This document shows, piece by piece, positions 1 through 30,025 of a DNA stretch of 64,000 nucleotides. Position 1 is the stretch's first letter, and each line of letters starts with the position of its first letter. A program made the position numbers and the translations under genes. The stretch spans positions 67,493-131,492 of the forward strand of contig CAZIPW010000001.1 in NCBI GenBank assembly GCA_964541675.1. The letters run 5' to 3'. The notes beneath the pieces were generated by a model. That model searched no databases. It saw only the letters and a program-made list of their open reading frames with translations, and was not told where the DNA came from. This stretch comes from an uncultured Verrucomicrobiota bacterium. GTDB taxonomy: Bacteria > Verrucomicrobiota > Verrucomicrobiia > CAZIPW01.

Positions 1-417
1 GCGAACCCGCCGGTCTGCCGCATCATGGATTTTGGCAAGTTTCGCTATGAGCTGGCCAAGAAGGAAAAAGGCCCCAAAATCATCACCAAACTCAAGGAGA
101 TAAAATTCCGCGTCCGCATAGAGCAGAATGACTATGCGACGAAATTGCGCCACGCAGAGGAATTTCTGTGGGAGAACAACAAGGTAAAGCTGACCCTGTC
201 TTTCCGAGGCAGGGAGATGGGGCACACCGAGCTTGGCCGGGAGGTCATCCTGCGCGCCCTGGCGGATCTGGCCCATGTAGCCACTCCAGACGCGGAGCCA
301 AGGTTGTCGGGACGTGCCATCAATGTGATGCTCTCTCCGCTCCCGCAATCCAAGCGCAAACGGCGTTTCACCGAGATAGAAACCCAAACATCACCGCAGC
401 CCGAACAGCCGGAATAA
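1..417 (+). CDS. infC: translation initiation factor IF-3, C-terminal portion (5' end lies outside the window)
   Basis: The reading frame is open from nt 1 with no stop before the first ATG at 25. The translation KEIKFRVRIEQNDYATKLRHAEEFL...FRGREMGHTELGREVI matches the conserved IF-3 C-domain. Confidence 0.75.
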   Translation, partial: ANPPVCRIMDFGKFRYELAKKEKGPKIITKLKEIKFRVRIEQNDYATKLRHAEEFLWENNKVKLTLSFRGREMGHTELGREVILRALADLAHVATPDAEPRLSGRAINVMLSPLPQSKRKRRFTEIETQTSPQPEQPE

Positions 418-419
418 AT

Positions 420-1397
420 ATGGCGCGGATTCTGCGATTCGCCCGCGTGCTGGCAGCGGTTCTCTTTTTACCGTTTGGTTTGCACGCGCTCAGCATTGGT
501 GGGGAGGACTACCTTCCGTTGTCTTTCGTCGCGCAAAGACTGGGTATGCGCTGCGCTCTTTCGCCGGATGGCAAAGATGCGAGTCTTGCTGGCAATCTAC
601 AGAGTTTCAAGGCGACCCTCAATCAGAAGGGCAGCACGATCAACGGTACGCGCGTCTGGCTCAACTATCCGATAGCGGAATCCAAAGGCAGCCTCTATCT
701 CAGCCGATTGGACTATGAGCATACCCTCATGCCCATCCTGCGTCCCGGGGCGTTCAATCTCTCCCGTTATCACTTGCGTCGTATTGTTCTAGATCCGGGA
801 CACGGTGGCAAAGACACGGGCGCGCGCAATCCGCGTATGCATACCAACGAAAAGACTTTTACGCTGGATGTGGCGGGGCGGGTCAAGCAGCGTCTGGAAG
901 CGCTCGGCTATCAGGTTATTTTTACTAGAAACTCCGATAGATATGTGGAGCTTAAAGATCGTTCCGCCCTGGCCAATGCCGTTCATGCGGATCTCTTCGT
1001 CAGCATTCATTTCAACTCGGCTGCACCCAATATTACCGGTGTGGAGACATACTCTTGTACGCCGCAGGGAGCCCCCTCGTCTTCCAGCGCCGAGCCGGAG
1101 GCCTCGGATGAGGATTTTCAGCCCGGTAACGCCCACGATGTCGCCAGCTTATGCCTGGCCTACGAGGTACAGAGGAGTTTGGTTTCGAGTCTGCGCGCTC
1201 CCGATAGGGCGGCCCGGCACGCGCGGTTTGTGGTATTGGAAGGCCTTCACTGTCCCGGTATTTTGGTTGAGGGAGGCTTTATTACTTCCCCGACCGAGGG
1301 CTCTCGCCTTACCAGTTCGATGTATCGCCAGCAGCTGGCGAACGCCATTGTCGAGGGCATCCGCGGCTACCACAGGAAGATTCTTGGGATGAGGTAG
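420..1397 (+). CDS. N-acetylmuramoyl-L-alanine amidase (Amidase_3/AmiC type), secreted
   Basis: The track ORF 168..1397 overlaps infC; an in-frame ATG at 420 gives the signal-peptide-like start MARILRFARVLAAVLFLPFGLHA. The Amidase_3 core IVLDPGHGGKDTGARN...ADLFVSIHFNSA is present. Confidence 0.8.
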   Translation: MARILRFARVLAAVLFLPFGLHALSIGGEDYLPLSFVAQRLGMRCALSPDGKDASLAGNLQSFKATLNQKGSTINGTRVWLNYPIAESKGSLYLSRLDYEHTLMPILRPGAFNLSRYHLRRIVLDPGHGGKDTGARNPRMHTNEKTFTLDVAGRVKQRLEALGYQVIFTRNSDRYVELKDRSALANAVHADLFVSIHFNSAAPNITGVETYSCTPQGAPSSSSAEPEASDEDFQPGNAHDVASLCLAYEVQRSLVSSLRAPDRAARHARFVVLEGLHCPGILVEGGFITSPTEGSRLTSSMYRQQLANAIVEGIRGYHRKILGMR

Positions 1398-1531
1398 AAG
1401 TTATTGCGACGGGATTATGCAGATAGCCATTGTGCCTTTAGAAAAGAGGCTTCTGCAACAAGACTGCGTGTTCAGGTTTGCTAACATATTGGTGTCCTTG
1501 ATTTTTGGGCTAAAAGAAGTACAATTGATGG

Positions 1532-2092
1532 ATGAGAGGCGTGAGTGACAGAAGGGGAATTCCTTTGAAGCAGAATATGGTCCCTGTTTATGTTCAACGG
1601 ATAGAAGAAAGTTCATCTGGCATCAATACCCATGCCAGCACGATGAAACCGCATGGGGTTTATACGACACCCGCTAATGTCATAAGCCCTCACCAAGAGT
1701 TAGGGGGCAATATCTTTTTCTGGGAATTGAACCCCAGCGCAAGTGTTTTGGATTTGAGCACATCTAGTCCCATACCAATAAGAGAAATGGCAATCGATAG
1801 TGGCACAGGAGTCCATGCTGCCAGTAAATTATTAGGTACTGAGAGATTTCAGCAATTGCTTGGGAGAACTAAAACTCAGTTGATTCAATGGGCTGATGAC
1901 AACCTTACCAAAGCTGACTATGGAAGATATTACGACAATCAAGAAGTATTGGAGGCTATCGGTGGACAATTGGCACGCCAACACGGCTTTGATATCCTTT
2001 ACCGTTACGATCAGACCATGCCAGAGTTTAGCGAGGTAGTCTTGTTGAGTGAAAGGGCAGGAAAACCGATATCAGAAGTGCCTGAGATCTGA
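1532..2092 (+). CDS. hypothetical protein (ORFan) inside a low-GC insertion
   Basis: 186-aa ORF with no recognisable motif. It lies in a ~0.85 kb stretch that is visibly more AT-rich than the flanks (by eye, mid-40s % vs ~57%). Confidence 0.4.
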   Translation: MRGVSDRRGIPLKQNMVPVYVQRIEESSSGINTHASTMKPHGVYTTPANVISPHQELGGNIFFWELNPSASVLDLSTSSPIPIREMAIDSGTGVHAASKLLGTERFQQLLGRTKTQLIQWADDNLTKADYGRYYDNQEVLEAIGGQLARQHGFDILYRYDQTMPEFSEVVLLSERAGKPISEVPEI

Positions 2093-2266
2093 AGTAACAA
2101 GTCATCTTTTTCTGGAAAGAACAGACTTTCAGTCCCCAAAAATATGACTCTATTGCTTTGGCCAAATTGGTACCTTTGACCGGCTGCCCATATGATTCGT
2201 TAAACAAGCTCCATTTTTAAAGGCGGTATAATACCATCATCGTGCAACCCTCCTCAGGAAGCCAAA

Positions 2267-3145
2267 CTACCCTACCAGCCCCTCGATATACTCCTCCAAC
2301 TCAAATCTCCTCAAGTCTTCCAGTCCTTCTCCCAGCCCAGCAAAATACACAGGTAGCTTTAGTTCTTGATAAAGCCCCACAAGGGCCCCTGCTTTTGATG
2401 AACCGTCCAGTTTGGTGATGATGAGCCCGGTAAGTGGCAGCGCTTCAGCAAAAGCTCTGGCCTGAGCGAGCGTATTTAGCCCGAGAGTCGCGTCCAAGAC
2501 AAGCAGAGTATGCTGGGGGGCTGTCTGATCCACCTTTTTGATGGCGCGATCAATCTTGCGTAGTTCCTCCATGAGCCTCTCCTTGGTATGGAGCCGACCC
2601 GCCGTATCGATAAGAAGCGTGTCCATGCTCCGGGCTTTTGCGGCCCGTAGGGCATCAAAGGCGACAGCTGCCGGATCGGCTCCAGTGCGACTCTCAATAA
2701 GCGGTACTCCCGCCCGCCCCGCCCACAAGCTCAGCTGATCGTTGGCGGCGGCGCGGAAGGTGTCCGCCGAACCGATAATCGGTTTTCTTCCCTCTGTCTT
2801 GAATGCGTGCGCCAGCTTGGCGACCGTGGTCGTTTTCCCTGCGCCATTGATTCCCAGAATGAGAATCGTATTGAGACCCTCCTTCCATTCCCAATTGCCT
2901 GCGATGCCCCGCAGCTTCTCTCTAAGGACATTTTTGAGCGTTTCGGCAGCCGAATGGCCTTTCAAATTCTCCTTTGAAAGTTCCTTTAACACTTGTTTTG
3001 TTGTTTCAAGCCCCAGATCTGTCTGAAGAAGTGTTGCTTCCAATTCCTCAAGGTCTTGAGCAGTCGGTATGCCCCGCAATTTCCCAATGGCAGCGGTGAT
3101 GTTATGGGATGCCTTCTCCAGGCCTTTTTTAAAAAAAGAAAACAT
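2267..3145 (-). CDS. ftsY: signal recognition particle receptor FtsY
   Basis: SRP-GTPase NG-domain motifs: GINGAGKTTTVAKLA (P-loop), DTAGRLH, and a TKLDG-type motif. Confidence 0.85.
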   Translation of the reverse strand: MFSFFKKGLEKASHNITAAIGKLRGIPTAQDLEELEATLLQTDLGLETTKQVLKELSKENLKGHSAAETLKNVLREKLRGIAGNWEWKEGLNTILILGINGAGKTTTVAKLAHAFKTEGRKPIIGSADTFRAAANDQLSLWAGRAGVPLIESRTGADPAAVAFDALRAAKARSMDTLLIDTAGRLHTKERLMEELRKIDRAIKKVDQTAPQHTLLVLDATLGLNTLAQARAFAEALPLTGLIITKLDGSSKAGALVGLYQELKLPVYFAGLGEGLEDLRRFELEEYIEGLVG

Positions 3146-3148
3146 ATT

Positions 3149-3586
3149 TTACTTGACGGGTTCTCTCAGGCTTCTGCCCAAGGTCGGGGCAATTTTGTCC
3201 AGGATGCCGTTGATAAACTTTCCCGACTCCTCGTTGGAGAAACTCTTGGCCAGGTCAATGGCCTCATTCATCGTTACAACCGGTGGAATGTCAGGCCGAT
3301 TGTAAAACTCATAGATGGCCAGCCTCAATATGGTCAGGTCCACCTTGTGAAGACGGGAACGATCCCAGTTTTCCAGCCTTTCGTCTATGATCTTGTCAAT
3401 CTTGTCGAGGTTCTGGAGTGTTCCAATGATCAGTTGTTTGCAAAACTCCCTGTCGTCAATGGGCAACTCGAAGGCCTCCCATATTGTTTCCAGAGAGTGA
3501 TCCATTTCGCTCATGGGAAGCTTGTTGATTTCCCAAAAATACAGGAATTGGATGACGGCTTCTCTTAATTGGCGGCGTTTGGGCAT
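3149..3586 (-). CDS. nusB: transcription antitermination factor NusB
   Basis: 145 aa. RQLREAVIQFLYFWE...LDRSRLHKVDLTILRLAIYEF...VTMNEAIDLAKSF follows the NusB family pattern. It sits just downstream of the epimerase gene and upstream of ftsY on the same strand. Confidence 0.8.
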   Translation of the reverse strand: MPKRRQLREAVIQFLYFWEINKLPMSEMDHSLETIWEAFELPIDDREFCKQLIIGTLQNLDKIDKIIDERLENWDRSRLHKVDLTILRLAIYEFYNRPDIPPVVTMNEAIDLAKSFSNEESGKFINGILDKIAPTLGRSLREPVK

Positions 3587-3595
3587 GAGAGTTCA

Positions 3596-4525
3596 TTATA
3601 ACTCATTCTTGGCCCATTCCCAAGTTTTTTTCATGCTCTCTCTCAGGGTATATTGGGGCGCAAAGCCGAGTACCGCGCGCGCCTTCGTGATATTGGCATG
3701 GGTGGCCAGCTGGTCTCCCGGACGCGGGGGCAGTTTTTTGACTTTCAGTTTTTTGCCGCTGATCTGCTGCGCGAACTCAAGGGCTTCAGCCGTGGTGTTG
3801 GTTTTATCATTTCCCAGGTTGAATATCTCGCCCCGGACCTGGGGCAGCTTCTGTAGTGCCAGCATCGTCCCGTTGACGATGTCTCCGACATATGTATAGG
3901 AACGCTCGTGCGACAGGCTCCCCTCATACAGGGGGAATTCCGTGTCTTTTTTGAGCGCGCTGTATAGCATGGGAATGAGCTTGTCCGGCCTCTCTCTCTC
4001 CCCGAATACCGAGAAATACCGCAGGGAGCAAGCCAGCAGACGTCCCTGTCGAACCGCGCTCAACACGGCCTGTTCGCCGGCCAGTTTGCTGACGCCGTAA
4101 GCGGATGCGGGCTGGGGCAGAGTGTTTTCATCCCCGCAGGCCTTAAACCCGTATACGGAGGAGGTTGACACATGAACCATGCCGATATTGGTCCCCGCAA
4201 GAGCCTCCACGAGCGCCACGGTCGCGTGAAGGTTGTTTCGGATATAACTCTCGTATGAGGTCCCAGCACTGTTTCCGGGTTGAGCGGCCGCGTGTATCAC
4301 AAAATCAATCCCCTCTAAAATGCCGGAGAGCGGATCCATGCTCAGGTCGAGCTCGTGGACAAGAATTCCCTCCTTGGAAAGCATTCTGGCGGTCCGGCGT
4401 TTGATGCCAGGGTCGTAATAGGCGTCAAAATTATCGACGATATGCACGCGGTGGCCCCCCTGTTTGGCTGCCAGAGCCAGATGCGAACCGATGAAACCAG
4501 CGCCTCCGGTGATAAGGATGTTCAT
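3596..4525 (-). CDS. NAD-dependent epimerase/dehydratase family protein (UDP-sugar 4-epimerase-like)
   Basis: N-terminal Rossmann motif MNILITGGAGFIGSHL plus SDR-extended features (a YxxxK-like motif). Confidence 0.8.
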   Translation of the reverse strand: MNILITGGAGFIGSHLALAAKQGGHRVHIVDNFDAYYDPGIKRRTARMLSKEGILVHELDLSMDPLSGILEGIDFVIHAAAQPGNSAGTSYESYIRNNLHATVALVEALAGTNIGMVHVSTSSVYGFKACGDENTLPQPASAYGVSKLAGEQAVLSAVRQGRLLACSLRYFSVFGERERPDKLIPMLYSALKKDTEFPLYEGSLSHERSYTYVGDIVNGTMLALQKLPQVRGEIFNLGNDKTNTTAEALEFAQQISGKKLKVKKLPPRPGDQLATHANITKARAVLGFAPQYTLRESMKKTWEWAKNEL

Positions 4526-4579
4526 TCATATCTATTATAGGTTTTTTGCGCTGCTATCAAGACTCTTGCAAAGTATAAA

Positions 4580-4852
4580 ATGGCCTCCAAGAATAGAAGT
4601 ATGCTGGAGCGCAGCTATATAATTGGAAAGGATTGCACACTGCACGCGCGGCCTGCTGCCGCATTGCTCAAGATAGCCAAAACGCACGGGTGCGAGGTTT
4701 CCCTCAAGACGACAAAGGGCTGGGAGAAAGCTGGCATCATGAATCTGCTGCTTTTGAAGACCACGCCTGGCATTAAAATCACGCTGAGAGCAGACGGCGG
4801 CTCGGAAGAAGAGTGTCTGGCAGCCATTAGACTTCTCCTGGAAGGAGTCTAA
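4580..4852 (+). CDS. ptsH: HPr-family phosphocarrier protein (no EI/EII gene nearby)
   Basis: 90 aa. CTLHARPAAALLKIA matches the HPr His15 region (GxHARPA). Overall length and pattern fit HPr; the Ser46 region looks altered. Confidence 0.6.
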   Translation: MASKNRSMLERSYIIGKDCTLHARPAAALLKIAKTHGCEVSLKTTKGWEKAGIMNLLLLKTTPGIKITLRADGGSEEECLAAIRLLLEGV

Positions 4853-4891
4853 TACAAGGTCCGGTCTGGATCGGTTCCATCGAGGCTTGTC

Positions 4892-5644
4892 TTGGACCGG
4901 TTTATGCAATATAAGTGTTTGCAGATGCTTAGAGCCCGCATACTTTTTTGTGCGCTTATGTGCGCGGCAACCCTGCACGGGGCGGTTGACCTGACAATTC
5001 TCCAGCAACAAGGCTCAATAAGCGATTATGCCGGTATCTTCCCTGTCAAGGAGCGCGCGGTTCTAGAAGAACTGTTGGCGGAGCTCAATAACCGTTATGA
5101 TGTTCAGGTGAGCCTCGTGACCCTGCCCAATTTGGGCGAAACTCCCATAGAGCGGGCCACGCAGTCCCTCTATGACGCGTGGGATATGGGACGGGGAACA
5201 CTCAACAAATCAGCCCTGATCCTATTGAGTGCGGGTGATGGGCAGATGCATATATATGTGGGCATGGGATTGCGGGGAGTCCTCTCCACAAAGTGGATCG
5301 ACGCGCGTGCGGCGGAGTTATCTCCATTAATGGAACACCACCGCTACGAGGATGCCTGTGTCAATGCCATCGCGGTTGTTGTGCGCAGAATTCACGATAA
5401 TGCCTCGGATCTTCCAAAACTGAATACTGTCATGGTGCAGAGCCCCGGGATGGCTGCGGCGGCAGTGTCTGATCGCAAGGCTCTTCCCATCGCGGGAGTG
5501 ATCGCCTTGGCATTTGGGGCTTTATTGGTCATTTCCACCCTTATGCAGGCAGGTAACCGTCAGGCGTCTGTCTACGATATGGGCAGGGATTTTGAACGCA
5601 ATCGTACCGGGCCTTTTGGGAGCAAGAAGCCCAGATGGCTCTAA
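4892..5644 (+). CDS. TPM-domain (TLP18.3/Psb32/MOLO-1) protein, membrane anchored
   Basis: N-terminal signal/TM segment, the TPM pattern YAGIFPV...VQVSLVTLPNLGE...LILLSAGDGQMHIYVGMGLRGVL, and a C-terminal TM helix. Confidence 0.6.
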   Translation: MDRFMQYKCLQMLRARILFCALMCAATLHGAVDLTILQQQGSISDYAGIFPVKERAVLEELLAELNNRYDVQVSLVTLPNLGETPIERATQSLYDAWDMGRGTLNKSALILLSAGDGQMHIYVGMGLRGVLSTKWIDARAAELSPLMEHHRYEDACVNAIAVVVRRIHDNASDLPKLNTVMVQSPGMAAAAVSDRKALPIAGVIALAFGALLVISTLMQAGNRQASVYDMGRDFERNRTGPFGSKKPRWL

Positions 5645-5650
5645 TGCTTT

Positions 5651-6382
5651 ATGTTCACGTTTAAAAAACAAACACCAGAAGAATATGCCGCCAAGCTCAA
5701 AGAGATGCTTGGGGGTTGTCTTCGTTCGGTCACTCTCTACGGGTCTGCCACAACGGCCGACCATATTAAGGGAACCTCCGACTACAATGTTCTTGTGATT
5801 GCCGACAAATGGAGTGTTCTGGAACTCAATCAAGTGTCCAAGGTGTCCCAAAGATGGATGCGCGAAGGAAATGCCCCGCCTCTTCTCTTCACACCATACC
5901 GCTGGCAGTCCATGGTAGAGACCTTTCCCATAGAAGTACTGGACATGAAACAGGCTTATCGTGTGGTATTGGGAGAGGATTTTCTCAAGTCAACCAAGGT
6001 ACAGGCCGTACATCTGAGGCTCATGACCCAGCGCGAGATTGGCAGTCTAAAAATACAGCTGCGCCAGGGCTTTCTGTATGCAAACGGCGAGCCCCGCAAG
6101 ATCGCGCACCTTATGGTAAAGACGCTCTCCGCGACACTGGCACTATTCCGCGCAGCTTTAAGGCTGTATGTTGACGCGGTACCCACAAAAAAGATAGAGG
6201 CCTTGCCCATGCTCGCGGAGAGAATCAAGGGCATTGACGTGGAGGCAATTCAAACCATTCATAATCTCAAACACGGCAGCCTGAAAATATCCAAAGTCAA
6301 TCCACTCAACCTTTTCCAGAGATATATTGATAGCCTTACGGTTGTCGGAGACGCCATCAATCCAGATGTTAAGAAAGCGTGA
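5651..6382 (+). CDS. AadA-like (ANT(3'')-family fold) nucleotidyltransferase-domain protein with D-x-N in place of the catalytic D-x-D
   Basis: TLYGSATTADHIKGTSDYNVLVI aligns with the AadA nucleotidyltransferase motif HLYGSAVDGGLKPHSDIDLLVTV. The second catalytic Asp is replaced by Asn. The stop overlaps the start of the next gene by 4 nt. Confidence 0.55.
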   Translation: MFTFKKQTPEEYAAKLKEMLGGCLRSVTLYGSATTADHIKGTSDYNVLVIADKWSVLELNQVSKVSQRWMREGNAPPLLFTPYRWQSMVETFPIEVLDMKQAYRVVLGEDFLKSTKVQAVHLRLMTQREIGSLKIQLRQGFLYANGEPRKIAHLMVKTLSATLALFRAALRLYVDAVPTKKIEALPMLAERIKGIDVEAIQTIHNLKHGSLKISKVNPLNLFQRYIDSLTVVGDAINPDVKKA

Positions 6383-6714
6383 GTATGTCGGAGTGCGTGA
6401 TTCCAGAAATGCGGGTGGGCAAGATTATTGCCGTGGAGGAACCAGAGGGTTTGCGCAATAAAGCCTGGGTGATGACTCTGGATTTTGGTCCCTATGGAAT
6501 CAAAAAATCGGTGGGGCAATTTAAAAATTTCAGTGCCGAAGAGATGATTGGCCGATTGGTTGTGGCTGTAGTGGGTCTGGGGACCAAAAAGGTGGGATCC
6601 TATAGCAGCGAATGCCTGGTACTGGGCACGATGGTTGACGCGGCGGACCATAATCTGGGTCATTACTTCATTGAACCCAGCCCCAAGTCAAAATTGGGAG
6701 ACCTGATCGGATAG
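6379..6714 (+). CDS. csaA: CsaA-like tRNA-binding (Myf/EMAP) domain protein
   Basis: 111 aa. It aligns along its whole length with B. subtilis CsaA (MRVGKIIAVEEPEG...LDFG..GIKKSVGQ...VVAVVGL...SECLVLG). Translationally coupled to the upstream nucleotidyltransferase gene. Confidence 0.7.
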   Translation: MSMSECVIPEMRVGKIIAVEEPEGLRNKAWVMTLDFGPYGIKKSVGQFKNFSAEEMIGRLVVAVVGLGTKKVGSYSSECLVLGTMVDAADHNLGHYFIEPSPKSKLGDLIG

Positions 6715-6720
6715 CGGAAC

Positions 6721-7902
6721 CTAGCCGTTTCTTCGTTTGGGCTTGGGCTTTTCCTGAATGTCGTCAAGAGGCGTCCAGTTGTATTCGAACCCTTCCAGTT
6801 TCTTGCGCTCAATGGATCTTCCAAGAAGCCGCTCAATGGCCCGCAGGGGTTCAACGTCCGCCGCGGTCAGCATGGAGTATGCGTCGCCTTCGGCACCCGC
6901 GCGTCCTGTACGTCCTATGCGGTGAATGTAGTCCTCGGCGTGTTCGGGGATATTGTAGTTGATCACATGGCTCACAGAGCTGATATCAAGCCCTCGTGCC
7001 GCTATGTCAGTAGCCACCAGTATCTGTGCCTTGCCATCTTTGAAATCTTTCAGCGCACGCGTTCTTTCGCTTTGCGACCGATCCGCATGAATGACCGCCA
7101 CAGGGTGTCCCTCCTTCTGCAGCTTCCTGGCCACTCCATCGGAGCCGTGCTTGGTGCGGCAAAAGATGATGACACTCTTGTGATGGATCTGTTTGAGAAG
7201 ATGCTTGAGCAGTTCGAGCTTCTGGCGGTCGTCCACGGGCAGCATATAGTGGCTGATTGTGTCAGCCGCCGAGAGCTTCCGGTTGACGGCGATGGGTTCA
7301 GGGTTCTTGAGCGCCCAGTTCGCGAGCCGGTCTATTTCCTGCGGGACGGTTGCGCTGAAAAGCAGGGTCTGCCGGACTCTGGGCGTCATTTCGACGATTC
7401 GGCGCACATCCGGCATGAATCCCATGTCCAGCATACGGTCAACCTCGTCCAGTACGAGAATCTCAATCTCGCGCAGATTCAGCGCGCGTTCCTCCACATG
7501 ATCCAGAAGTCTGCCGGGGGTTGCGATTATCACGTCGCTGCCGCGCGAGAGGGCTTCCCGCTGGCTGCCGTATCCCACGCCGCCGTGCAGAAGCGCGTAT
7601 TTCAGGCCGACAGTCGACCCCAGTTTGTCAAAATTCTCGATTACCTGGGCAGCCAGTTCGCGGGTAGGCTCCAAGATGAGGGCTCTTGGAGGGCTTTTGG
7701 GGCGATGATTCCAGAGTTTTTGGATAATGGGAAGAGCGAAGGCCGCCGTCTTGCCGGTACCGGTCTGGGCCGATCCGATGACATCGCGTCCGGAGAGTAT
7801 CACGGGAATAGCCTGGGCCTGAATGGGCGTGGGTTCTGTATAGCCCATGCGCGTAATGGCTTCCAAGAGGGGGGCGGATAGTCCTAGATTATCAAATGAC
7901 AT
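6721..7902 (-). CDS. DEAD-box ATP-dependent RNA helicase (RhlE-like)
   Basis: Q-motif (GYTEPTPIQ), motif I AQTGTGKTAAF, DEVD, SAT, HRIGRTGR. Confidence 0.85.
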   Translation of the reverse strand: MSFDNLGLSAPLLEAITRMGYTEPTPIQAQAIPVILSGRDVIGSAQTGTGKTAAFALPIIQKLWNHRPKSPPRALILEPTRELAAQVIENFDKLGSTVGLKYALLHGGVGYGSQREALSRGSDVIIATPGRLLDHVEERALNLREIEILVLDEVDRMLDMGFMPDVRRIVEMTPRVRQTLLFSATVPQEIDRLANWALKNPEPIAVNRKLSAADTISHYMLPVDDRQKLELLKHLLKQIHHKSVIIFCRTKHGSDGVARKLQKEGHPVAVIHADRSQSERTRALKDFKDGKAQILVATDIAARGLDISSVSHVINYNIPEHAEDYIHRIGRTGRAGAEGDAYSMLTAADVEPLRAIERLLGRSIERKKLEGFEYNWTPLDDIQEKPKPKRRNG

Positions 7903-7933
7903 TTTCTCATCCTATCCTATATAAACCCCTCGG

Positions 7934-8980
7934 TCAAACCGCATCCTCTGGTGCTGCCGGCTCCTTTTCGATTATTGGGAGTTGGATGTTGGCCACAAGC
8001 TGCCCATAATTTGGATCTATGGCAGCCATTCGCTTCTCAAGCGGCGGATGGGTGGCCATCAGGTCTATCCCATTCATCCCCGATGTGGCGAAGAAGAAAT
8101 GTGCCAACCCCGCGGCGTGATGATGTTCGATCTGCGATCCGGCTTGTATTTTGGCCAGCGCCATGACCATGGCCTGCGGATTTCGGGTGAATTGAACCGA
8201 CGAGGCGTCCGCCAGAAATTCCCGTTGGCGGCTGATGAGTGCCTGGATGACCCGGCCGAAGAAGAACCCCACCGATCCGATCACAAGGAGCGCAAAACCA
8301 AAGATCATGAAGGCCACGGCCCCGCGCCGACGATCGGAAGAACCACCTCCGCTGGCGCTGTTTAGCGCAAACCGTCCCATGATCGAGACCAGAAAAAGCC
8401 CCCATATCCAGCCTGCCAGCTGAATGTTGAGTTTGCAGTCGCCGTTGAGCAGGTGGCTGAACTCGTGCCCGATGACGGCCTGCAGCTCCTCGCGGTTGAG
8501 ATAATTGAGGGTGCCCCGCGTGACGACCACGACGGCGTCCCTGGGAGAAATGGCCGCGGCAAAGGCATTGATTTCGGGTTCGTCGTCAAGAACTCCGACC
8601 TGGGGAACAGAGTATCCGGAGGCGAGGGACATCTCTTCCACCACGTTGAGAAGTATCCTCTCTTGTTCATCCTGCGTGTTGCGGTCTATGGCGCGCGCGC
8701 CCACGCTTTGGGCCACGGAAAGCCCGCCGCCGGAGAGTTCGGCGACTTTAAAAAAGGTCCCGCCCAAAATGACGGCCACTGTCCCGCCCACACACCAGAG
8801 GAAGGTGGCCAGGTCAAAGCTGTCAATGGGAGCGCGATACCAAAGGGGGCTGTCGTAATGCATGGCCATGGTATAGGCCGCGTAGACGCCCAGAGCGGTG
8901 AGAACGACAGCCAGGACAAAGAGGATAATGGCGATCCCGGTTCTTTGTTTGGCTTGTTCTTGTGCTCCGAAAAAATCCAT
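7934..8980 (-). CDS. htpX: M48-family zinc metalloprotease (HtpX-like), membrane
   Basis: HExxH motif (GHEFSHL), N-terminal TM helices, periplasmic-facing peptidase domain. Adjacent to lemA, as commonly seen. Confidence 0.75.
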   Translation of the reverse strand: MDFFGAQEQAKQRTGIAIILFVLAVVLTALGVYAAYTMAMHYDSPLWYRAPIDSFDLATFLWCVGGTVAVILGGTFFKVAELSGGGLSVAQSVGARAIDRNTQDEQERILLNVVEEMSLASGYSVPQVGVLDDEPEINAFAAAISPRDAVVVVTRGTLNYLNREELQAVIGHEFSHLLNGDCKLNIQLAGWIWGLFLVSIMGRFALNSASGGGSSDRRRGAVAFMIFGFALLVIGSVGFFFGRVIQALISRQREFLADASSVQFTRNPQAMVMALAKIQAGSQIEHHHAAGLAHFFFATSGMNGIDLMATHPPLEKRMAAIDPNYGQLVANIQLPIIEKEPAAPEDAV

Positions 8981-8983
8981 GAA

Positions 8984-9574
8984 TTAGAATTGCACCTTGG
9001 GGGCGGCGCGCTCGGCGTCATTGGTAATTTCAAAAAGCGAGGCATCCTGGAACCCGAACATTCCGGCCAAGACCACGTTGGGGAAGGTCTGACGGGCGGT
9101 GTTGTATTTCATTACCGCGTCGTTGTAAGCCTGACGGGCAAAGGAGACTTTGTTCTCGGTGGAGGTCAATTCCTCGGAGAGTTGTCTCATATTAGCGTCG
9201 GCTTTCAGGTTCGGATAACTTTCGGCGACGGCCATGAGGCGTCCGAGGGTCCCGGTCAGGACTCCTTCGGCGCTTGCCAGGCCAGCCACGGCTGCTGCGT
9301 CCGTTGCGTCGCCGCCGACCTTCTGATGGGCGGTGTAGGCGGTGTTGCGGGCGGCGATCACGGCTTCGAGCGTCTGGCTCTCATGCTTGAGGTAGCCCTT
9401 GGCGGTCTCCACGAGGTTGGGAATCAGATCGTAGCGGCGTTTGAGCTGGACGTCTATTTGCGCGAAAGCATTCTTGAATTGATTGCGGAAGGCGACGAGG
9501 GTGTTGTAGATGCCAATGATAGCGATCACAAGGACGACTACCACGACGATGCCGATTATAAGTGGGATATTCAT
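8984..9574 (-). CDS. lemA: LemA-family protein
   Basis: N-terminal TM helix followed by LVAFRNQFKNAFAQIDVQLKRRYDLIPNLVETAKGY, which is typical of LemA. Its stop overlaps the htpX start region. Confidence 0.8.
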   Translation of the reverse strand: MNIPLIIGIVVVVVLVIAIIGIYNTLVAFRNQFKNAFAQIDVQLKRRYDLIPNLVETAKGYLKHESQTLEAVIAARNTAYTAHQKVGGDATDAAAVAGLASAEGVLTGTLGRLMAVAESYPNLKADANMRQLSEELTSTENKVSFARQAYNDAVMKYNTARQTFPNVVLAGMFGFQDASLFEITNDAERAAPKVQF

Positions 9575-9667
9575 ACGAGGGAGAGTCTAGGGTATTTGAA
9601 GGAGGTTTGTAAGAAAAAAGTGGTGGGGGTGGGGCGGGTCTAATTAATAGGCATATGTTAGTATATA

Positions 9668-9698
9668 ATCACTGTTATTGTCACTGTTTAACAGTGAT
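9668..9698. promoter_or_regulatory. tripartite TCACTG/CAGTGA repeat element (site A), about 95 bp upstream of the lemA start
   Basis: ATCACTG-ttatt-GTCACTG-tttaa-CAGTGAT. Hexamer cores begin at 9669, 9681 and 9692 (11-12 bp phasing). On the minus strand the element directly adjoins a TATATACT -10-like box. Confidence 0.45.
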
Positions 9699-9939
9699 AA
9701 TTGGGTAATGTACACCGTGTTGCACGAAGCTATAGAAATCCCATAAAATGGGCAGTGGGGCTTATTGGACTTATAGGACATATAAGAAGCTGGATTTTTT
9801 TGACTGGTAAAAGATAAAGATTGCTAAGGGCATTATATCAGGTTTTTGGGAGGGGGGTATGAACAAGACCTTCGGGACATTTGCGACTTTCAGGACAGGA
9901 AGGATAAACACCCTGCCTGGCTTCAGTCAGAAGCCGATT

Positions 9940-11220
9940 CTATATCTTCGTGCCACTTGGTACAGTAGTGCCCGCCGTTACCACCAGCACACCGTCACGC
10001 ACCACAATTCCATCCTTGTCGTAGAGATCCGGTTTGCCTTCCGGGCTCAGAACCACATTGTCCCCGATGCGCACATTCTTGTCGATGATGCAGTTGGTGA
10101 AGCGGCAGTTCTTCCCGATACCCATTGGGGGAATGCTCTTCTCGTCGTTGTGCAGTTGTTCCTCAAAAGTCTCATAGCAATCCTGTCCCATCGTGACGAC
10201 ATTTTCAAGCACCGTTCCCTCGCGGATGATGGTTCGCAGTCCTATGACACATCTTTTGAGAGCGGACTTTTGGATGATGGTCCCATCGGAGATAATAACG
10301 CGGTCGAGGGTTGAAGCCGTGACTTTGGAAGAGGGGAGAAAGCGCGGCTGGGTGTAAATCGCGGCTTCCTCCTCAAAGAATTCAAAGGGCGGATGTTCAT
10401 CTGCCAGATCCAAATTGGCGTTAAAGAACGCCGCCACGGTGCCGATGTCCTCCCAGTAATCGTCAAAGATGAAGGCGTACATGGGGACCTTCCCCAAAAG
10501 CGACGGGATAATCTCCTTGCCGAAGTCGGTCGCGTTGTTGTCTAGGGCTTCGTAGAGCGTCTTGCAATTGAAAACGTAAATACCCATGTTGGCCAGGACC
10601 TTCTTCTGGCCCTCGTTGCGTTTGATGCCATCCATGAGAGAGTCGGGAATAACCAGGCTTTCAATGATCTTTGGGTCTTTGGGTTTTTCAACAAACTCAG
10701 AGATCGCCAGGTTGTCACGCACCCGCATGATGCCCAGTCCGGGCGCACGGTTTGCCGGGGTCGGGTTGGCCGCAAGGGTCAGCGCCGCTCCCGTCGAGAG
10801 GTGCTGCTCTATGAAAGAGCGGAAATCCATCCGGTAGAGCTGGTCGGCCGAGATGATCAGAAACAGGTCATCCCCCTTGGCTCCGAAGTGTTTCAGATTC
10901 TTGCGGATGCAGTCCGCCGTTCCCTGGTACCAGTCGGAGGTCTGCTCGGTCTGTTCGGCGGCCAGGATGTCCACAAACCCACCCCCAAAAGAGTCGAATT
11001 TGTATGACTCCCTGATATGCTTGTGGAGCGAGGCGGTATTGAACTGCGTCATCAGATAGATGCGGTTGAGTCCCGAGTTCAGACAGTTGGAAATGGGGAT
11101 ATCCACAAGCATATATTTGCCCGCCAGCGGCACGGCCGGTTTGCAGCGGTTTTTGGTGAGCGGATAAAGACGGGTGCCTCTTCCGCCGCCCATGATGGCA
11201 CAGATGACCTGGGAGCCCAT
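9940..11220 (-). CDS. glgC: glucose-1-phosphate adenylyltransferase
   Basis: N-terminus IMGGGRGTRLYPLTKNRCKPAVPLAGKYMLVDIPISNCLNSGL, plus the left-handed beta-helix C-domain characteristic of GlgC. Confidence 0.85.
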   Translation of the reverse strand: MGSQVICAIMGGGRGTRLYPLTKNRCKPAVPLAGKYMLVDIPISNCLNSGLNRIYLMTQFNTASLHKHIRESYKFDSFGGGFVDILAAEQTEQTSDWYQGTADCIRKNLKHFGAKGDDLFLIISADQLYRMDFRSFIEQHLSTGAALTLAANPTPANRAPGLGIMRVRDNLAISEFVEKPKDPKIIESLVIPDSLMDGIKRNEGQKKVLANMGIYVFNCKTLYEALDNNATDFGKEIIPSLLGKVPMYAFIFDDYWEDIGTVAAFFNANLDLADEHPPFEFFEEEAAIYTQPRFLPSSKVTASTLDRVIISDGTIIQKSALKRCVIGLRTIIREGTVLENVVTMGQDCYETFEEQLHNDEKSIPPMGIGKNCRFTNCIIDKNVRIGDNVVLSPEGKPDLYDKDGIVVRDGVLVVTAGTTVPSGTKI

Positions 11221-11295
11221 ATGGACAAACTTTGACGGAATGAAAGACGCCCGGCAAATCTAATCCAAAGGGATATTTATGCCGTTTAAACATCC

Positions 11296-12990
11296 ATGGG
11301 TCTACGCAAACGTTATCTGGCTGTCTGGCTGGGTGTTCTCATCATGCTGCTTCTGGCGGCGGGGTGGGGAATTCAAAACACCTATGATCTGCTTCTGAGC
11401 CTGCAGTGGCAGAAAGAGGCCGCCTCTTTAAGGCAACGACTGGATCGTACGTTGGTTGACAGGGAACTGCAATTGGGGGTGCTGGCCGAGAGTCTTGGCG
11501 CGCGCCTCAAGGATCCCGGGAGCGACGCCCTCCCAGCGGACTGTTCGAATCTTATCTCCCGCTTGGATATCAGCGAGGTGGTCTGGCATTCCCCGACGCA
11601 GATGCGGGTTCTGTATCCGGCTGCCGCTCAGGCACAGCCGAAAGTCTGGCGTGCCACGCTCTATGATTTTTTTCGTACCTCCACAATGCAGGTGGGTATT
11701 GAGATCACCGAATTTGGCCCGCGCCTTCTGGATATAGAGCCTCTTTTGCAGGAGGGTCAGACGGGAGGGCTGGAAGTCTGCGCGTCCCTGGAGAGGTTCA
11801 TGCGCACTTTTGCGTCCCGCGAGGGAGTGGAGATGGCTCTGGTAACGCAGAAGGGGCAATCCCGCAAGATCCTGTGCGCCTCGGCTCCGCTGCCTGGGGC
11901 GATATCCGAAAGTCCTGTTTATAAACGATATTCGGGCGGGCGCTCCCGTGGACTTTTTGACAAGGGGGGCGTTCTGTGGGGGATTATCATAGCTGATGAC
12001 GTTGAATATTCCTCCGCCCTGGCTCCTTCCGCCGGCAGTCCCACGCGGATGGTGCTGTGGACAAATTATACCGACGCAGCCGCGCAGCTGGCGACACAGC
12101 GCAATTTGGTAATGGGGCTTTCGGCAGTGCCCATAACGCTTCTATGGCTGGGTGTTTTCTATTATTTCTTTTATCATCGCCACAAGCTGCGTCTTCTTGA
12201 GGAGGCCGCGAGGCGGCAGCTGCTTGTCTCCAACATCTCCCTGAAGACAGAAGTGGAATCGCGCCAGATGGCGGAGGAATCCCTGCGCGGAATCTCTTCC
12301 GAGCTGTACGCGGACCACGAGAGGAATCTAGCGCTCCTGGAAAAGATTTCCCATAGAATCAAATTGGACGCCTCTGCTACTCTCGGTTTCCTGGATCTTG
12401 CCCTGGCCGGGGGGGTATCTCTCAGAGAGAACCTGGACGCGCTTAAAATCATGGCAAACCAGCATCTCTTTATGGCTGACAACATTGCGGCCTGGCTGCG
12501 CCGCCGCAAGGGGCCTCTGGCCAAAGCAGATTGTGTATTGCGTCGTATAGCCGAGACTACTTCCCAAAACCTTGGGAAGTGGTACGGGGAGAAAAAAGTC
12601 TCAATCAGCATTAATATCGCTGATACCATCCTGGTGAATGCAGACTCATCGCTTCTGGAGATCCTTCTGAGAAACATCCTTGTCAATGCCCTGAAATATT
12701 CCCCGCCTGGCTCTTCGGTGGAAATAACAGCCCGTGCTCTGCGGTCAGGGGTCGAACTTTATGTGGCCGATGGGGGCAGCGGAATCCCGGGCGAGATCAT
12801 GAAAAAACTATTTGATCCCACCGACAGACCATTAAGCCCGGGCGTGGATGGCGAACAGGGTTTGGGGTTGGGACTGCCCATTGTTAAATGGATCTGCGAG
12901 GCTCATTCAGCGCAGATACGGGTCATATCAGCCGGCGAGCAGGGTTGCCGCGTGGTATTCTTCTTCCCCAGTCCGGAAAAGAAAGATTAG
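11296..12990 (+). CDS. sensor histidine kinase (orphan, no cognate regulator adjacent)
   Basis: N-terminal TM helix, a periplasmic domain, a second TM helix, a coiled-coil/HisKA-like region, and a C-terminal HATPase_c domain (NALKYSPPGSSVEI...DGGSGIP...GLGLGLPIV). Confidence 0.7.
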   Translation: MGLRKRYLAVWLGVLIMLLLAAGWGIQNTYDLLLSLQWQKEAASLRQRLDRTLVDRELQLGVLAESLGARLKDPGSDALPADCSNLISRLDISEVVWHSPTQMRVLYPAAAQAQPKVWRATLYDFFRTSTMQVGIEITEFGPRLLDIEPLLQEGQTGGLEVCASLERFMRTFASREGVEMALVTQKGQSRKILCASAPLPGAISESPVYKRYSGGRSRGLFDKGGVLWGIIIADDVEYSSALAPSAGSPTRMVLWTNYTDAAAQLATQRNLVMGLSAVPITLLWLGVFYYFFYHRHKLRLLEEAARRQLLVSNISLKTEVESRQMAEESLRGISSELYADHERNLALLEKISHRIKLDASATLGFLDLALAGGVSLRENLDALKIMANQHLFMADNIAAWLRRRKGPLAKADCVLRRIAETTSQNLGKWYGEKKVSISINIADTILVNADSSLLEILLRNILVNALKYSPPGSSVEITARALRSGVELYVADGGSGIPGEIMKKLFDPTDRPLSPGVDGEQGLGLGLPIVKWICEAHSAQIRVISAGEQGCRVVFFFPSPEKKD

Positions 12991-13766
12991 CTTTTTTGCC
13001 GGAGGATTTCGTACAAGATGGCGCCTGTAGCCACGCTGACATTCAGGGAGTCTCCGATTCCGCGCATGGGCAGGCTGATCTTTTCGTCGGCGCTGTCCAA
13101 TATTTCCTGTGTCAGCCCCCGTGCCTCGCTTCCGATGGCGACGGCAGTGGGCCCCTTCAAATCGGCCTGCCATAGGCTCCTGGTGGCGGCCGGAGAAGTC
13201 GCCACGAGCCGCAATTTGTGTTTCTTGATCCAGTTCAGTGCGTCGTTCCAATTGGCCGTTGCGTAGGGGACGCTGAAGGCGCCTCCCGCGCTGCCTCGCA
13301 GTACATTGGGATTGAAGAGGTCTATGGAGAGATTGCAGCCAATCACCGCGTCGACGCCGACGGCGTCACAGGTTCTAAGCAGGGTGCCAAGATTGCCCGG
13401 CTTCTCGATATCTTCAGCCAATATGACGAGCGTGGGCGCTTTGACCTGAAGGCGGGAGAGATCGGTGGGCCATGTCCGGGCCTCAACGAGCAGCCCCGCG
13501 GGGTTCTCGCGGTAGCAAACAGCCCCGTAAGCGTGTTTTCCAAGTTCGACCAGTTTGATTCCCCGGTCCAAGATTTTCTTTAGAAGAGGGGTTTCAAAAG
13601 GAAAGGCGTCGCAAAGGTAGGCTGTTTCAAGAACGACTTTTTTGTCAAGGGCACGTTCAATTTCCCGCTGCCCATCAATGAGAAAGAGCCCCGACTCCCG
13701 TCTTCCCCGAGCCTCGCGCAGTTCCTTGAGACGTTTGATGATGGCGTTCTGGCGGCTTTCTATCAC
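12987..13766 (-). CDS. TrmH/SpoU-family RNA 2'-O-methyltransferase (RlmB-like)
   Basis: SpoU motifs LVILAEDIEKPGNLGTLLRTCDAVG and ISLPMRGIGDSLNVSVATGAILYE. Confidence 0.7.
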   Translation of the reverse strand: MIESRQNAIIKRLKELREARGRRESGLFLIDGQREIERALDKKVVLETAYLCDAFPFETPLLKKILDRGIKLVELGKHAYGAVCYRENPAGLLVEARTWPTDLSRLQVKAPTLVILAEDIEKPGNLGTLLRTCDAVGVDAVIGCNLSIDLFNPNVLRGSAGGAFSVPYATANWNDALNWIKKHKLRLVATSPAATRSLWQADLKGPTAVAIGSEARGLTQEILDSADEKISLPMRGIGDSLNVSVATGAILYEILRQKS

Positions 13767-13780
13767 ACCCTTGATTATCC

Positions 13781-13987
13781 CTATTTGGAGGTAAGGTTGT
13801 TGCGGCCCTGCTTGACGAGCCTGGTGAAGCGCCGCTGCTCCTTGGCGCTCAACCCCGTGTATTTGCGGTGAAGAATCCTGCCCGTGTCGGTGACGTATTG
13901 GGGCTGCTTGGAGGCATCAATAAAGTTCATCTGCAAAACATTCTTGGTTTTGACCGGGGTGGGGGAGGATTCGGACTTTTCTGACAT
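13781..13987 (-). CDS. rpsR: 30S ribosomal protein S18
   Basis: 68 aa. YVTDTGRILHRKYTGLSAKEQRRFTRLVKQGR aligns with the S18 core (Y.TE.GKI.P.R.TG..AK.QR.LA.AIKRAR). It is not in the usual rpsF-rpsR-rplI context. Confidence 0.65.
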   Translation of the reverse strand: MSEKSESSPTPVKTKNVLQMNFIDASKQPQYVTDTGRILHRKYTGLSAKEQRRFTRLVKQGRNNLTSK

Positions 13988-14055
13988 AGGGGGGCATTAT
14001 CCCATATCAGGCGGGTGATGGCAAGGCTAAAAAACGCGCTTTCGGGCGGGCTTGG

Positions 14056-15906
14056 TCAGAAGATCGGCTGGAGCATCTCAATAAGGCTGGAGACCAGCCG
14101 CTGGTTGGCGCGGCCCTTCAACTGGGCTTGCTGGGAGATAATCTTGCGGCGGTCCCTGACTAGGGCAAGCGGGGTGTTGTTGCGCATCACAATGCAGTCC
14201 TCCATGACCGTTCCATCACTCCACATATGGGCGTTGTAGCGCAGGAAGGAAATGAAAAAATCCGCCTCACGGGGATCGTAGGTATAGACCAGATTGGCGG
14301 GCAGAAAGATCTCCACAAGCCAGGGCGCCATGGGAGAAGTAACTTTGTATATCCTGGTGTCGTGTGTCTTTTTGAGATGCGCGACCAGCATCTCGACGGC
14401 TTCGCGGTGGCTGGTGCCCCAATAATCGGTGTCAAAGTCGGCGTAAGCCTTTTCCTCGCCGCCCACGAGACTGTTAAAGAAAATATATTGATACGGATGC
14501 AGGAGAAAATCCTCCCTGACAACCAGCAGGCTGCCGAAAAGGATCAGGCATATCAGGGAGGTTCGCAGATGGAACCTTATGAGAACGAAGAGTCCGATGA
14601 GGGCCACCACAAAAGCGGATATTAGGAATCCATCCATATATCCCCGATAGAAAAGCGGCCAGAGAACCGCCCGTTCCATGACAAAAGTGGCGCACATGAT
14701 GAGCAGGATTCCCACGGGAAGACCCAGCAGAATGCGCGTCAGGATGGATGGAGACTTTAGTGAGGAAATCCAGTCAAAAACCGTGCCGACTGCCAGGGCG
14801 TTGAGGACCGCCCAGGGTCCCAGTACAAAGAGAAAATGCCGAATGCCGTCATACAAAGTGGCGTGTTTAATGGCAACAACCACGATTGGAAAGAGAAAAC
14901 AGAAGGCCACCAGGCCAATGGAGAGACGGTTTAGAACAGCTCTTCTGTCAGACTTGATGAAGACCAAACTCCATAAGCCGATGATGCCTCCCAGGATGCC
15001 GATGGCTATCAGAAATATCGGGGTTGTGATGGAGAGCATCTCCGGCATATAGAACCACGGCAGGTGGGTGGCGGGATAGACGCGACCATTGAGTACCACC
15101 GGGCCGTTCCACGGGTATTCGCCGATCCGCATCAGGGTATGGACGATCGCGGTGAGAGGATTCTGATGCGCGAAGGGCCACCAAGGCAGAAGTATGACAA
15201 AGGCTCCCAGAACAACCGTCGTCATCATGCCCGCGTAATGAACGGCTCTGCTCCACGGGAGATCATCCCTGCGCTTTAGCCAGAGTCTGACTGCAAAAGC
15301 CAAGGCCATGAAGGCGAAGAAAAAGGCACCTCCCATGCGGACGCCAAGAGTCAGTCCATAGGTCAGTGTCAGGATGGCGATAAATCCCGGAGTGATCTTG
15401 GGAATGGAGATGACTTTGATCGTCTGGTAAAGCGACCAGATGTACATACAGGCAAAGGGAATGTCCTTCGGGTTGATGAACATATGCCCGTAGAAGTGCG
15501 GAAAGAGCGTCAGAAAAAATGCCGACAGGAACCCCGTGCGCGCTCCGCCAAGCTGTTTGCCGACCTTGTACGCGCCAAAGACGGTCAGTATGCCGAAGAC
15601 GGCGCTCAGCAGATGATCGGAGTAGACCATTCCCAGGCTGCCAGGACCGAAGAGTCCGGTTTTAAACAGCAGCTGGTGAACGAGATCATAGAAGCCAGGA
15701 TAGTTGTCCTCGGGATTGTCGTAGGGCTGCCAGTGCCCCGAGAAGGCGTTCTCGTAATAGGCGAACTTCTTGGCGCCTTCGGTGTTCCGGTAAAATTCAT
15801 CCCAGCTCATCCCATAGTCGCTGAAAGTTTTGAGAGAGATTCCCAGTAGGAGGATCAGCAGCGCGGCGGTGGCCCACCTCCACGGGAATGCGGCTCGGGA
15901 TAACAT
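14056..15906 (-). CDS. GT-C fold glycosyltransferase, family 39/ArnT(PMT_2)-like polytopic membrane protein
   Basis: 616 aa with more than 12 predicted TM helices and the loop/helix organisation typical of ArnT/PMT-type undecaprenyl- or dolichyl-phosphate-sugar transferases. Confidence 0.5.
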   Translation of the reverse strand: MLSRAAFPWRWATAALLILLLGISLKTFSDYGMSWDEFYRNTEGAKKFAYYENAFSGHWQPYDNPEDNYPGFYDLVHQLLFKTGLFGPGSLGMVYSDHLLSAVFGILTVFGAYKVGKQLGGARTGFLSAFFLTLFPHFYGHMFINPKDIPFACMYIWSLYQTIKVISIPKITPGFIAILTLTYGLTLGVRMGGAFFFAFMALAFAVRLWLKRRDDLPWSRAVHYAGMMTTVVLGAFVILLPWWPFAHQNPLTAIVHTLMRIGEYPWNGPVVLNGRVYPATHLPWFYMPEMLSITTPIFLIAIGILGGIIGLWSLVFIKSDRRAVLNRLSIGLVAFCFLFPIVVVAIKHATLYDGIRHFLFVLGPWAVLNALAVGTVFDWISSLKSPSILTRILLGLPVGILLIMCATFVMERAVLWPLFYRGYMDGFLISAFVVALIGLFVLIRFHLRTSLICLILFGSLLVVREDFLLHPYQYIFFNSLVGGEEKAYADFDTDYWGTSHREAVEMLVAHLKKTHDTRIYKVTSPMAPWLVEIFLPANLVYTYDPREADFFISFLRYNAHMWSDGTVMEDCIVMRNNTPLALVRDRRKIISQQAQLKGRANQRLVSSLIEMLQPIF

Positions 15907-15944
15907 TGCGGCATTTTAGCAGACCGGATTGAAAGCGCAAGAGT

Positions 15945-17645: not shown

Positions 17646-17657
17646 GAGTTTGTACCT

Positions 17658-18641: not shown

Positions 18642-18697
18642 TCGTATGGTTTGGATTGTGGGTTGAAAATACTGTGACGGCGGGATAGCCTTGTTTC

Positions 18698-19384: not shown

Positions 19385-19448
19385 GGTGCCATGCACGGGC
19401 TAAAAAGTATGTTGTAGATATCGAGTATATAATATACTATAAATCGCT

Positions 19449-20759: not shown

Positions 20760-20937
20760 ACTGACATAAGATTAGCCCCTCCCCAAACTCTGGTATAATC
20801 TCTTCCGTGCATACCGATTCTTTCCCACTCAGAATAATTCTCCAGGGGCTTCCTATATGTCCAATAGGTACTATAAGTCCTACGGCCTCTCTCGGTATGC
20901 CCGCAGCCCCATATCAAACTAAGGATAACACCCTATC

Positions 20938-21021
20938 ATCACTGATAAACCGTGAGATAGCAGTGATTATGAGGCAAATGCTTCCCTCAAGATCACTGTG
21001 GAGCAGTGATTTTGCAGTGAT
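20938..21021. promoter_or_regulatory. two adjacent tripartite TCACTG/CAGTGA repeat clusters (sites B1 and B2), ~70 bp upstream of rbfA
   Basis: B1 (20938-20967) is ATCACTG-ataaa-CCGTGAG-atag-CAGTGAT. B2 (20992-21021) is ATCACTG-tggag-CAGTGAT-tttg-CAGTGAT. Spacing within each cluster is 11-12 bp for cores matching the consensus; B1's last hexamer follows the degenerate CGTGAG by 10 bp. Confidence 0.45.
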
Positions 21022-30017: not shown

Positions 30018-30025
30018 CGGGCCGA

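Follow-up and report, generated by a model that had tools for sequence, protein, structure and literature searches.

The protein encoded by open reading frame 1 (ORF1) was found to belong to a very large and uncurated family with the fold of the aminoglycoside nucleotidyltransferases (ANT), whose genes mostly lie between those for a TPM-domain protein and a LemA-family protein. ORF1 is a gene of 243 codons in a 64,000-nucleotide stretch of contig CAZIPW010000001.1 (positions 67,493 to 131,492; hereafter the window) from an uncultured Verrucomicrobiota bacterium. In the window, it is followed directly by a csaA-like gene (ORF2), and an earlier note made from the sequence alone had proposed that the two form a tRNA-directed modification or toxin-like pair or, failing that, that ORF1 is a pseudo-enzyme scaffold. 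The explanation that we favour, and consider rather probable, is that a TPM/LemA membrane module includes ORF1 as its soluble subunit, that the nucleotide site of ORF1 is non-canonical, and that csaA is a lineage-specific passenger of the operon.

Placement between TPM and LemA genes is a conserved feature shared by several phyla. A scan limited to one genome per species, run with a 17-sequence alignment, revealed 167 relatives of ORF1, and the best 80 loci were taken together with 6-kb flanks. These derive from 79 species genomes of the Verrucomicrobiota (including Kiritimatiellales, Pontiella and Opitutales), Acidobacteriota, Planctomycetota, Elusimicrobia and Lentisphaerae. Clustering of the neighbouring reading frames produced one recurrent upstream family, the TPM-domain protein, and one recurrent downstream family, LemA. 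When the loci were scored with hidden Markov models (HMMs), 68 of the 74 scorable loci had a TPM gene as the immediate 5' neighbour of the ORF1 homologue, 72 of 78 had lemA as its immediate 3' neighbour, and 66 of 73 had the full triad of TPM, ORF1 homologue and LemA. The ORF1 homologue and lemA often overlapped by 4 nucleotides (nt). The remotest members tested (27-31% identity) also have lemA directly 3'; one of them (P0042) has the TPM gene 5' as well, and in another (P0044) the upstream gene is cut by the contig end.

Both partners possess a transmembrane helix. In nearly all of the triads (L002-L080) the TPM protein ends with a C-terminal transmembrane helix and a Gly-rich tail of the form ...GGFGGGxSGGGG[AS]xxW. 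The window TPM protein has a signal-like N-terminus, the TPM domain, a C-terminal transmembrane helix at about residues 200-218 and, after it, a short tail of basic character; if translation began instead at 4958, the product would have 228 amino acids. Its tail, RQASVYDMGRDFERNRTGPFGSKKPRWL (the C-terminus, encoded at 5490..5644), is basic and has no Gly-rich ending, as is also the case for the close relative L001 (RHTSIYEVGRDFERNRSGAFGNKKPHYSKT). LemA possesses one helix, located at its N-terminus, with basic residues after it. The positive-inside rule would accordingly place most of LemA, as well as the TPM tail, in the cytoplasm, where ORF1 would meet them. Neither ORF1 nor ORF2 contains a hydrophobic segment, and both are therefore predicted to be soluble.

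The arrangement in the window departs from that of the triads. The TPM gene lies directly 5' of ORF1, whereas lemA is not the immediate 3' neighbour but lies 2.6 kb away on the opposite strand, its place being occupied by csaA. The window LemA protein is approximately 40-45% identical to the LemA proteins of the triads. A close relative (L086) likewise has lemA on the opposite strand at a distance of about 2.6 kb, directly 5' of an M48 peptidase gene. In the window, lemA lies 3 nt upstream of the M48 peptidase gene; this pair is shared with L086 but is not found beside the triads of other phyla. The M48 peptidase and the DEAD-box helicase encoded nearby were considered as members of the conserved module and rejected, being present in close relatives only.

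One relevant paper was found. It is a transcriptome study in which deletion of sppA in Flavobacterium columnare raised lemA and a TPM gene among others, which its authors read as a response of membrane homeostasis and stress (PMC13236525). The searchable literature yielded no account of LemA/TPM operons in which the middle gene has the nucleotidyltransferase fold, nor any mechanistic study of such an operon or of how CsaA functions.

ORF1 and ORF2 are both real genes. A word-index search returned 44 homologues of ORF1 with E-values down to 1e-95, while an exhaustive profile search expanded the family to 4,125 cluster representatives at E<=1e-3, or 1,134 at E<=1e-30 (clusters defined at 50% identity). 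Neither Pfam nor NCBIfam contains a model for this family. A Pfam scan of ORF1 gave zero matches at E<=1, the sequence matches obtained were marginal, N-terminal ones to ANT(9) (E 0.013), and the scores against the NCBIfam models for ANT(9)-Ic and ANT(9) were 14.8 bits (cut-off 505) and 13.6 bits (cut-off 340), respectively. Among 42 family members tested, 28 matched NTP_transf_2, all weakly (best E 3.7e-6), and 17 matched Polbeta. Of the domain models that had been suggested for a check, tRNA_bind matches ORF2 (see below); the window ORF1 does not itself match NTP_transf_2.

The fold was assigned from a predicted structure. An AlphaFold2 model of ORF1 built from 42 homologues was confident, with a mean predicted local distance difference test (pLDDT) score of 90.7, and comprises a minimal nucleotidyltransferase domain followed by a HEPN-like helical bundle of the ANT/KNTase kind, fused within the 243 residues. 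Foldseek searches with this model placed ANT(9) and AadA at the top (E 4e-6 to 3e-4), followed by ANT(4') and the Hailong protein HalB. Sequence identity to the ANT and AadA structures is 10-14%. The description of ORF1 as an AadA-like nucleotidyltransferase was therefore right at the level of the fold, and the two-domain KNTase architecture is shared with ANT(4')-Ia, ANT(9) and AadA/ANT(3'')(9). In several other respects ORF1 is unlike these enzymes: it retains G31-S32 but has no D-x-[DE] motif, falls widely short of the family cut-offs and is encoded in a TPM/LemA operon rather than in a resistance context. A comparison with the HEPN-MNT system (HepT-MntA) likewise revealed differences. The two domains are encoded there by separate genes but are fused in a single chain in ORF1; the ORF1 family has no HEPN R-x4-6-H RNase motif, since no His is found among its conserved positions, and instead has a conserved helix motif, LFRAALRL; the D-x-D motif of MNT is not conserved; and the operon partners are membrane proteins. 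We class the ORF1 family as a branch of the nucleotidyltransferase fold that is uncurated, departs from the canonical site and has a defined operon context.

The putative nucleotide site of ORF1 contains the motif G31-S32 ... S43-D44-Y45-N46. In an alignment of the ORF1-family profile (LyGSaaagdfvkkksdyNlLv) with AadA (LYGSAVAGGLKP-NSDIDLLV; match E 0.11), N46 falls opposite the second Asp of AadA (SDIDLLV). The replacement of the second catalytic Asp by Asn, which the earlier note had recognised in the window gene, is hence borne out, and it is a trait of the ORF1 family rather than a peculiarity of this member. Conservation was counted in 84 genome-locus sequences and in the 150 top family representatives. 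Position 46 is Asn in 83 of the 84 loci and in 141 of the 150 representatives, of which a further 8 have Asp. Position 44 is more variable, being Asp in 74/84 loci and 126/150 representatives and otherwise N, G, H, R, Q, T or S, so that D44 is substituted in about 15%. By comparison, G31, E95 and G108 are invariant in both sets, S32 is invariant in the 84 loci and present in 148/150 representatives, and E127 and E129 are nearly invariant in both. The window protein itself departs from the family consensus at codon 127 (6029..6031), which encodes Gln where 83/84 loci and 147/150 representatives have Glu; further departures are D90 to E and G36 to A.

Of the two canonical metal positions, no more than one thus carries a carboxylate in most members, and in some (N-x-N, G-x-N, T-x-N) neither does, which indicates that canonical two-metal nucleotidyl transfer is not under selection in the family. 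The conserved polar cleft has clearly been maintained, and the pattern of residues argues for ligand binding or a non-canonical reaction; it does not amount to proof of inactivity. The alternative of a pseudo-enzyme or non-canonical scaffold fits these data because the D-x-D motif has been lost family-wide, although the conserved partners, TPM and LemA, had not been noticed when it was put forward. A Kiritimatiellia homologue within a normal TPM/LemA triad (L069:5995-6720) retains the canonical D-x-D in the sequence SDYDILLV. Substitutions D44N and D110N, tested as a sign of a shared metal site, do not go together.

The best surviving competitor, which we nevertheless regard as unlikely, is that ORF1 is an active small-molecule nucleotidyltransferase, either an antibiotic-modifying enzyme of the ANT type or a producer of a nucleotide signal, with a variant metal site composed of D-x-N and E95. 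Its neighbours would then be incidental, or would receive its product as in the Hailong pair HalB/HalA. The structure matches to ANT(4'), ANT(9), AadA and then HalB are in keeping with this proposal, as is the near invariance of G31/S32, E95, E127 and E129, which is what a working pocket would display. Additionally, about 5% of the family representatives have Asp at position 46, some of these with R, H or Q at position 44. ANT enzymes have a catalytic-base glutamate (E87 of AadA, E145 of ANT(4')), to which one of the conserved positions E95, E127 and E129 might correspond, if any does. Against an active enzyme of this kind stand the ANT model scores, which lie far under their cut-offs, the free replacement of D44, and the distribution of the family as a chromosomal triad conserved over several phyla, unlike that of resistance genes. 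With regard to HalB, the PDB titles name a D21A/D23A mutant, pointing to a carboxylate pair at positions 21 and 23; ORF1 has no PADLOC match to Hailong and its partner proteins are unrelated to HalA. PADLOC returned weak matches of ORF1 to cyclase-type nucleotidyltransferase cores only, at E 2e-4 and weaker. These were rejected as evidence of a defence system, none being above noise.

ORF2 is by sequence a genuine but divergent member of the CsaA/YgjH/Trbp111 type, and its description as CsaA-like has held up. It scored 32.4 bits against the Pfam tRNA_bind model PF01588, above the cut-off of 27, and its structure matches include Thermus thermophilus CsaA (1gd7, E 9.5e-14), 3g48, 2nzh and YgjH (3ers). 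Like CsaA, YgjH and Trbp111, ORF2 consists of a single OB-fold domain of about 110 residues, and its best matches are the CsaA proteins of T. thermophilus, B. anthracis, Agrobacterium and B. subtilis, together with E. coli YgjH. Its scores fall below every curated NCBIfam cut-off for CsaA or tRNA-binding proteins (TIGR02222 CsaA, 70.6 against 119.65 bits; NF007494, 70.3 against 109), hence its assignment as divergent. The stop codon of ORF1 was said to overlap the ATG of ORF2. The start that overlaps is instead the GTG at 6379, which forms a GTGA overlap and gives a product of 111 amino acids; the in-frame ATG at 6385 lies 2 nt past the stop and is the start chosen by homologues and by most gene callers (109 amino acids).

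The adjacency of csaA to ORF1 occurs in a single clade, and not throughout that clade. A CsaA-like gene was detected within 6 kb of the ORF1 homologue in 0 of the 80 species-genome loci, whether by tblastn or with a CsaA-clade HMM (E<=1). The order of TPM gene, ORF1 homologue and csaA recurs in four other lineages of the clade to which the window organism belongs (L081-L083; an ENA contig with P0003 and P0050; L094 and L095; and L096) and is therefore not unique to the window genome. Identity to the window protein in these lineages is 55-63% for the ORF1 homologues; the CsaA homologues are 68-75% identical, and the junctions between the two genes measure 1, 2, 13 and 14 nt. Conversely, the adjacency is missing from four equally close relatives (L001, L085, L086 and L087; 51-62% identity). 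In L085, nusB comes next after the ORF1 homologue; in L086 and L087 the DEAD-box helicase gene follows directly with no csaA between, the loci being otherwise syntenic; and L001 has neither csaA nor lemA nearby. A rough neighbour-joining tree showed csaA-positive and csaA-negative lineages to be intermixed, a pattern that fits either one gain with several losses or repeated rearrangement, and not an obligate partnership. Co-occurrence of ORF1 homologues and csaA, which had been suggested for a check, is seen in lineages of the narrow clade and in none of the 80 species-genome loci. In one relative, a fragment of a DDE_3 transposase gene (L081:2774-3142, L082:165-494) lies a few hundred bases 5' of the string of TPM, ORF1 and csaA genes, possibly a trace of rearrangement.

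Locus L084 carries a standalone csaA homologue, of 66% identity, at L084:4086-4400 between ftsK and a mannose-6-phosphate-isomerase-like gene, with grpE, cutA, dnaJ, yajC and secDF downstream. This setting hints at a chaperone or secretion context for the CsaA clade. B. subtilis CsaA binds SecA and precursor proteins. One might suppose that in the window clade CsaA was recruited as a chaperone, aiding the Sec export or membrane insertion of the TPM protein or partly replacing the displaced LemA, in which case the operon would be functionally coherent in a manner unrelated to tRNA. The signal-like N-terminus and C-terminal anchor of the TPM protein, the position of the L084 csaA a few genes 5' of grpE, dnaJ, yajC and secDF, and the placement of csaA in exactly the slot occupied elsewhere by lemA are all consistent with such a role. 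We give it little credence, given that the adjacency is patchy within the clade, that CsaA (an OB fold) and LemA (a membrane-anchored helical protein) are unrelated, and that the L084 neighbourhood is one observation.

A bolder proposal can also be made. The D-x-N ANT-fold family would be the missing cytoplasmic part of the widespread LemA/TPM modules, sensing nucleotides or performing an unconventional nucleotidyl transfer; it might, for instance, act on the Gly-rich TPM tail or signal to LemA. In the window clade, CsaA would have replaced LemA, so that a tRNA or protein binder of the CsaA type would serve as a new input or client. Taken as a whole, we consider this proposal quite improbable.

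The idea that ORF1 and CsaA are a dedicated pair, in which CsaA recruits tRNA and ORF1 modifies its 3' end in the manner of MenT or AbiEii toxins or a modification enzyme, largely fails the comparison across genomes. What speaks for it is the tight junction (2 nt, or a GTGA overlap with the alternative start) together with the junctions of 1-14 nt in the four other lineages, the identity of ORF2 as a true tRNA_bind protein and the confirmed nucleotidyltransferase fold of ORF1. What speaks against it is the count of 0/80 for csaA in the species genomes, the absence of the adjacency from the four close relatives, the standalone position of a close csaA homologue in L084, and the identity of the partners that are conserved, TPM and LemA. 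MenT and AbiEii belong to the same broad superfamily of the nucleotidyltransferase fold as ORF1, but no Pfam family was matched by ORF1, hence none of the MenT/AbiEii (DUF1814) type, and no such model was found among the PADLOC matches. Furthermore, the canonical two-carboxylate site is not conserved, and the neighbours of ORF1 are the TPM and csaA genes among housekeeping genes, with no antitoxin-like partner and no mobile or defence-island context. A tRNA-directed enzyme or toxin, for which adjacency is the argument, is thus highly improbable, and the position of csaA provides no good reason to assign to ORF1 an action on tRNA.

We return to the reading of ORF1 as a cytoplasmic subunit of an inner-membrane TPM/LemA module. 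ORF1 would dock onto the cytoplasmic domain of LemA, the cytoplasmic tail of the TPM protein, or both, and its cleft (G31/S32, N46, E95 and E127/E129) would bind a nucleotide or a related ligand in the absence of canonical two-metal nucleotidyl transfer. In the lineage of the window the module has been remodelled: lemA is displaced and paired with the M48 peptidase gene, the TPM tail differs, and the 3' slot is taken by a housekeeping csaA, which would be co-transcribed there and is probably translationally coupled. On this reading csaA is a lineage-specific feature of the operon rather than a defining partner, possibly conferring some benefit through co-expression.

Several points weigh against this explanation. 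What links ORF1 to the TPM and LemA proteins is gene order. In 5 of the 80 loci (L064, L066, L072, L077 and L079) no TPM or LemA gene lies within 6 kb; L064, L066 and L079 are from Opitutaceae and one Verrucomicrobiota metagenome-assembled genome, and L072 and L077 are from Elusimicrobia. An invariant Asn at the metal position is compatible with activity: Asn is able to bind Mg2+ and about one representative in twenty keeps Asp, for which reasons the family may still be enzymatic. Finally, the tight csaA junction has been kept in diverged lineages, and some selected co-expression within the clade is conceivable.

The analysis has brought to light a nucleotidyltransferase-fold family of very large size, with 4,125 or more clusters (50% identity), that lacks a curated model, preserves a non-canonical site and occupies a near-obligate place between TPM and LemA genes in genomes of several phyla. 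Little is understood about LemA and bacterial TPM proteins, common as they are, and a conserved soluble partner with a recognisable ligand-binding fold offers a concrete handle for experiments on them. Members of the family are found in cultured bacteria, among them Pontiella sulfatireligans F21 and two Pontiellaceae isolates (loci L059, L049 and L052). A tRNA-directed nucleotidyltransferase with its own dedicated tRNA binder would, if true, have represented a tRNA-modifying or toxin system of a new kind, but the evidence is against it.

The genes around ORF1 in the window are given in Table 1. The HPr-like gene heads a same-strand string of four genes (HPr, TPM, ORF1 and ORF2), and the same HPr-like gene is also found 5' of the TPM gene in close relatives. 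The TPM gene and ORF1 are separated by 6 nt, as are the ends of ORF2 and of the helicase gene that converges on it. A promoter scan of positions 4400-7000 gave one sigma-70-like match, at 4509-4538, just 5' of the HPr gene, and the sole terminator-like site near the end of the string lies directly 3' of ORF2. A single transcript with coupled translation of the string is plausible on this evidence.

Table 1 Genes at and around ORF1 in the window (positions from the first nucleotide of the 64,000).
Feature	Position	Strand	Evidence and remarks
HPr-like gene (PTS-HPr)	4580..4852	+	Pfam PF00381, E 9.3e-14
TPM-domain protein gene	4892..5644	+	Pfam PF04536, E 2.8e-19
ORF1, 243 amino acids	5651..6382	+	ATG start, stop TGA 6380-6382
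ORF2, 109 amino acids from ATG 6385 (111 from GTG 6379)	6385..6714	+	CsaA/YgjH/Trbp111-type tRNA_bind OB-fold
DEAD-box helicase gene	6721..7902	-	Convergent, bounds the operon; ORF list and gene tables
M48 (HtpX-like) membrane peptidase gene	7934..8980	-	Pfam PF01435, E 8.7e-27; hydropathy
LemA-family protein gene	8984..9574	-	Pfam PF04011, E 5.3e-58; N-terminal transmembrane helix

The surroundings of the locus consist of conserved housekeeping genes (NusB, FtsY, HPr and the DEAD-box helicase), and no mobile-element or antitoxin features were found there in the ORF list or gene tables. ARAGORN detected no tRNA or tmRNA genes in the window (1..64000), and no Rfam family reached its gathering score in the 64 kb. 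Elsewhere in the window, the minus-strand stretch 35490..43244 holds a bacterial serpin gene (42021..43244; PF00079, E 2e-121) and, directly 3' of it, six tandem paralogous genes for periplasmic-binding proteins (Pfam Peripla_BP_6) of 359-381 amino acids each.

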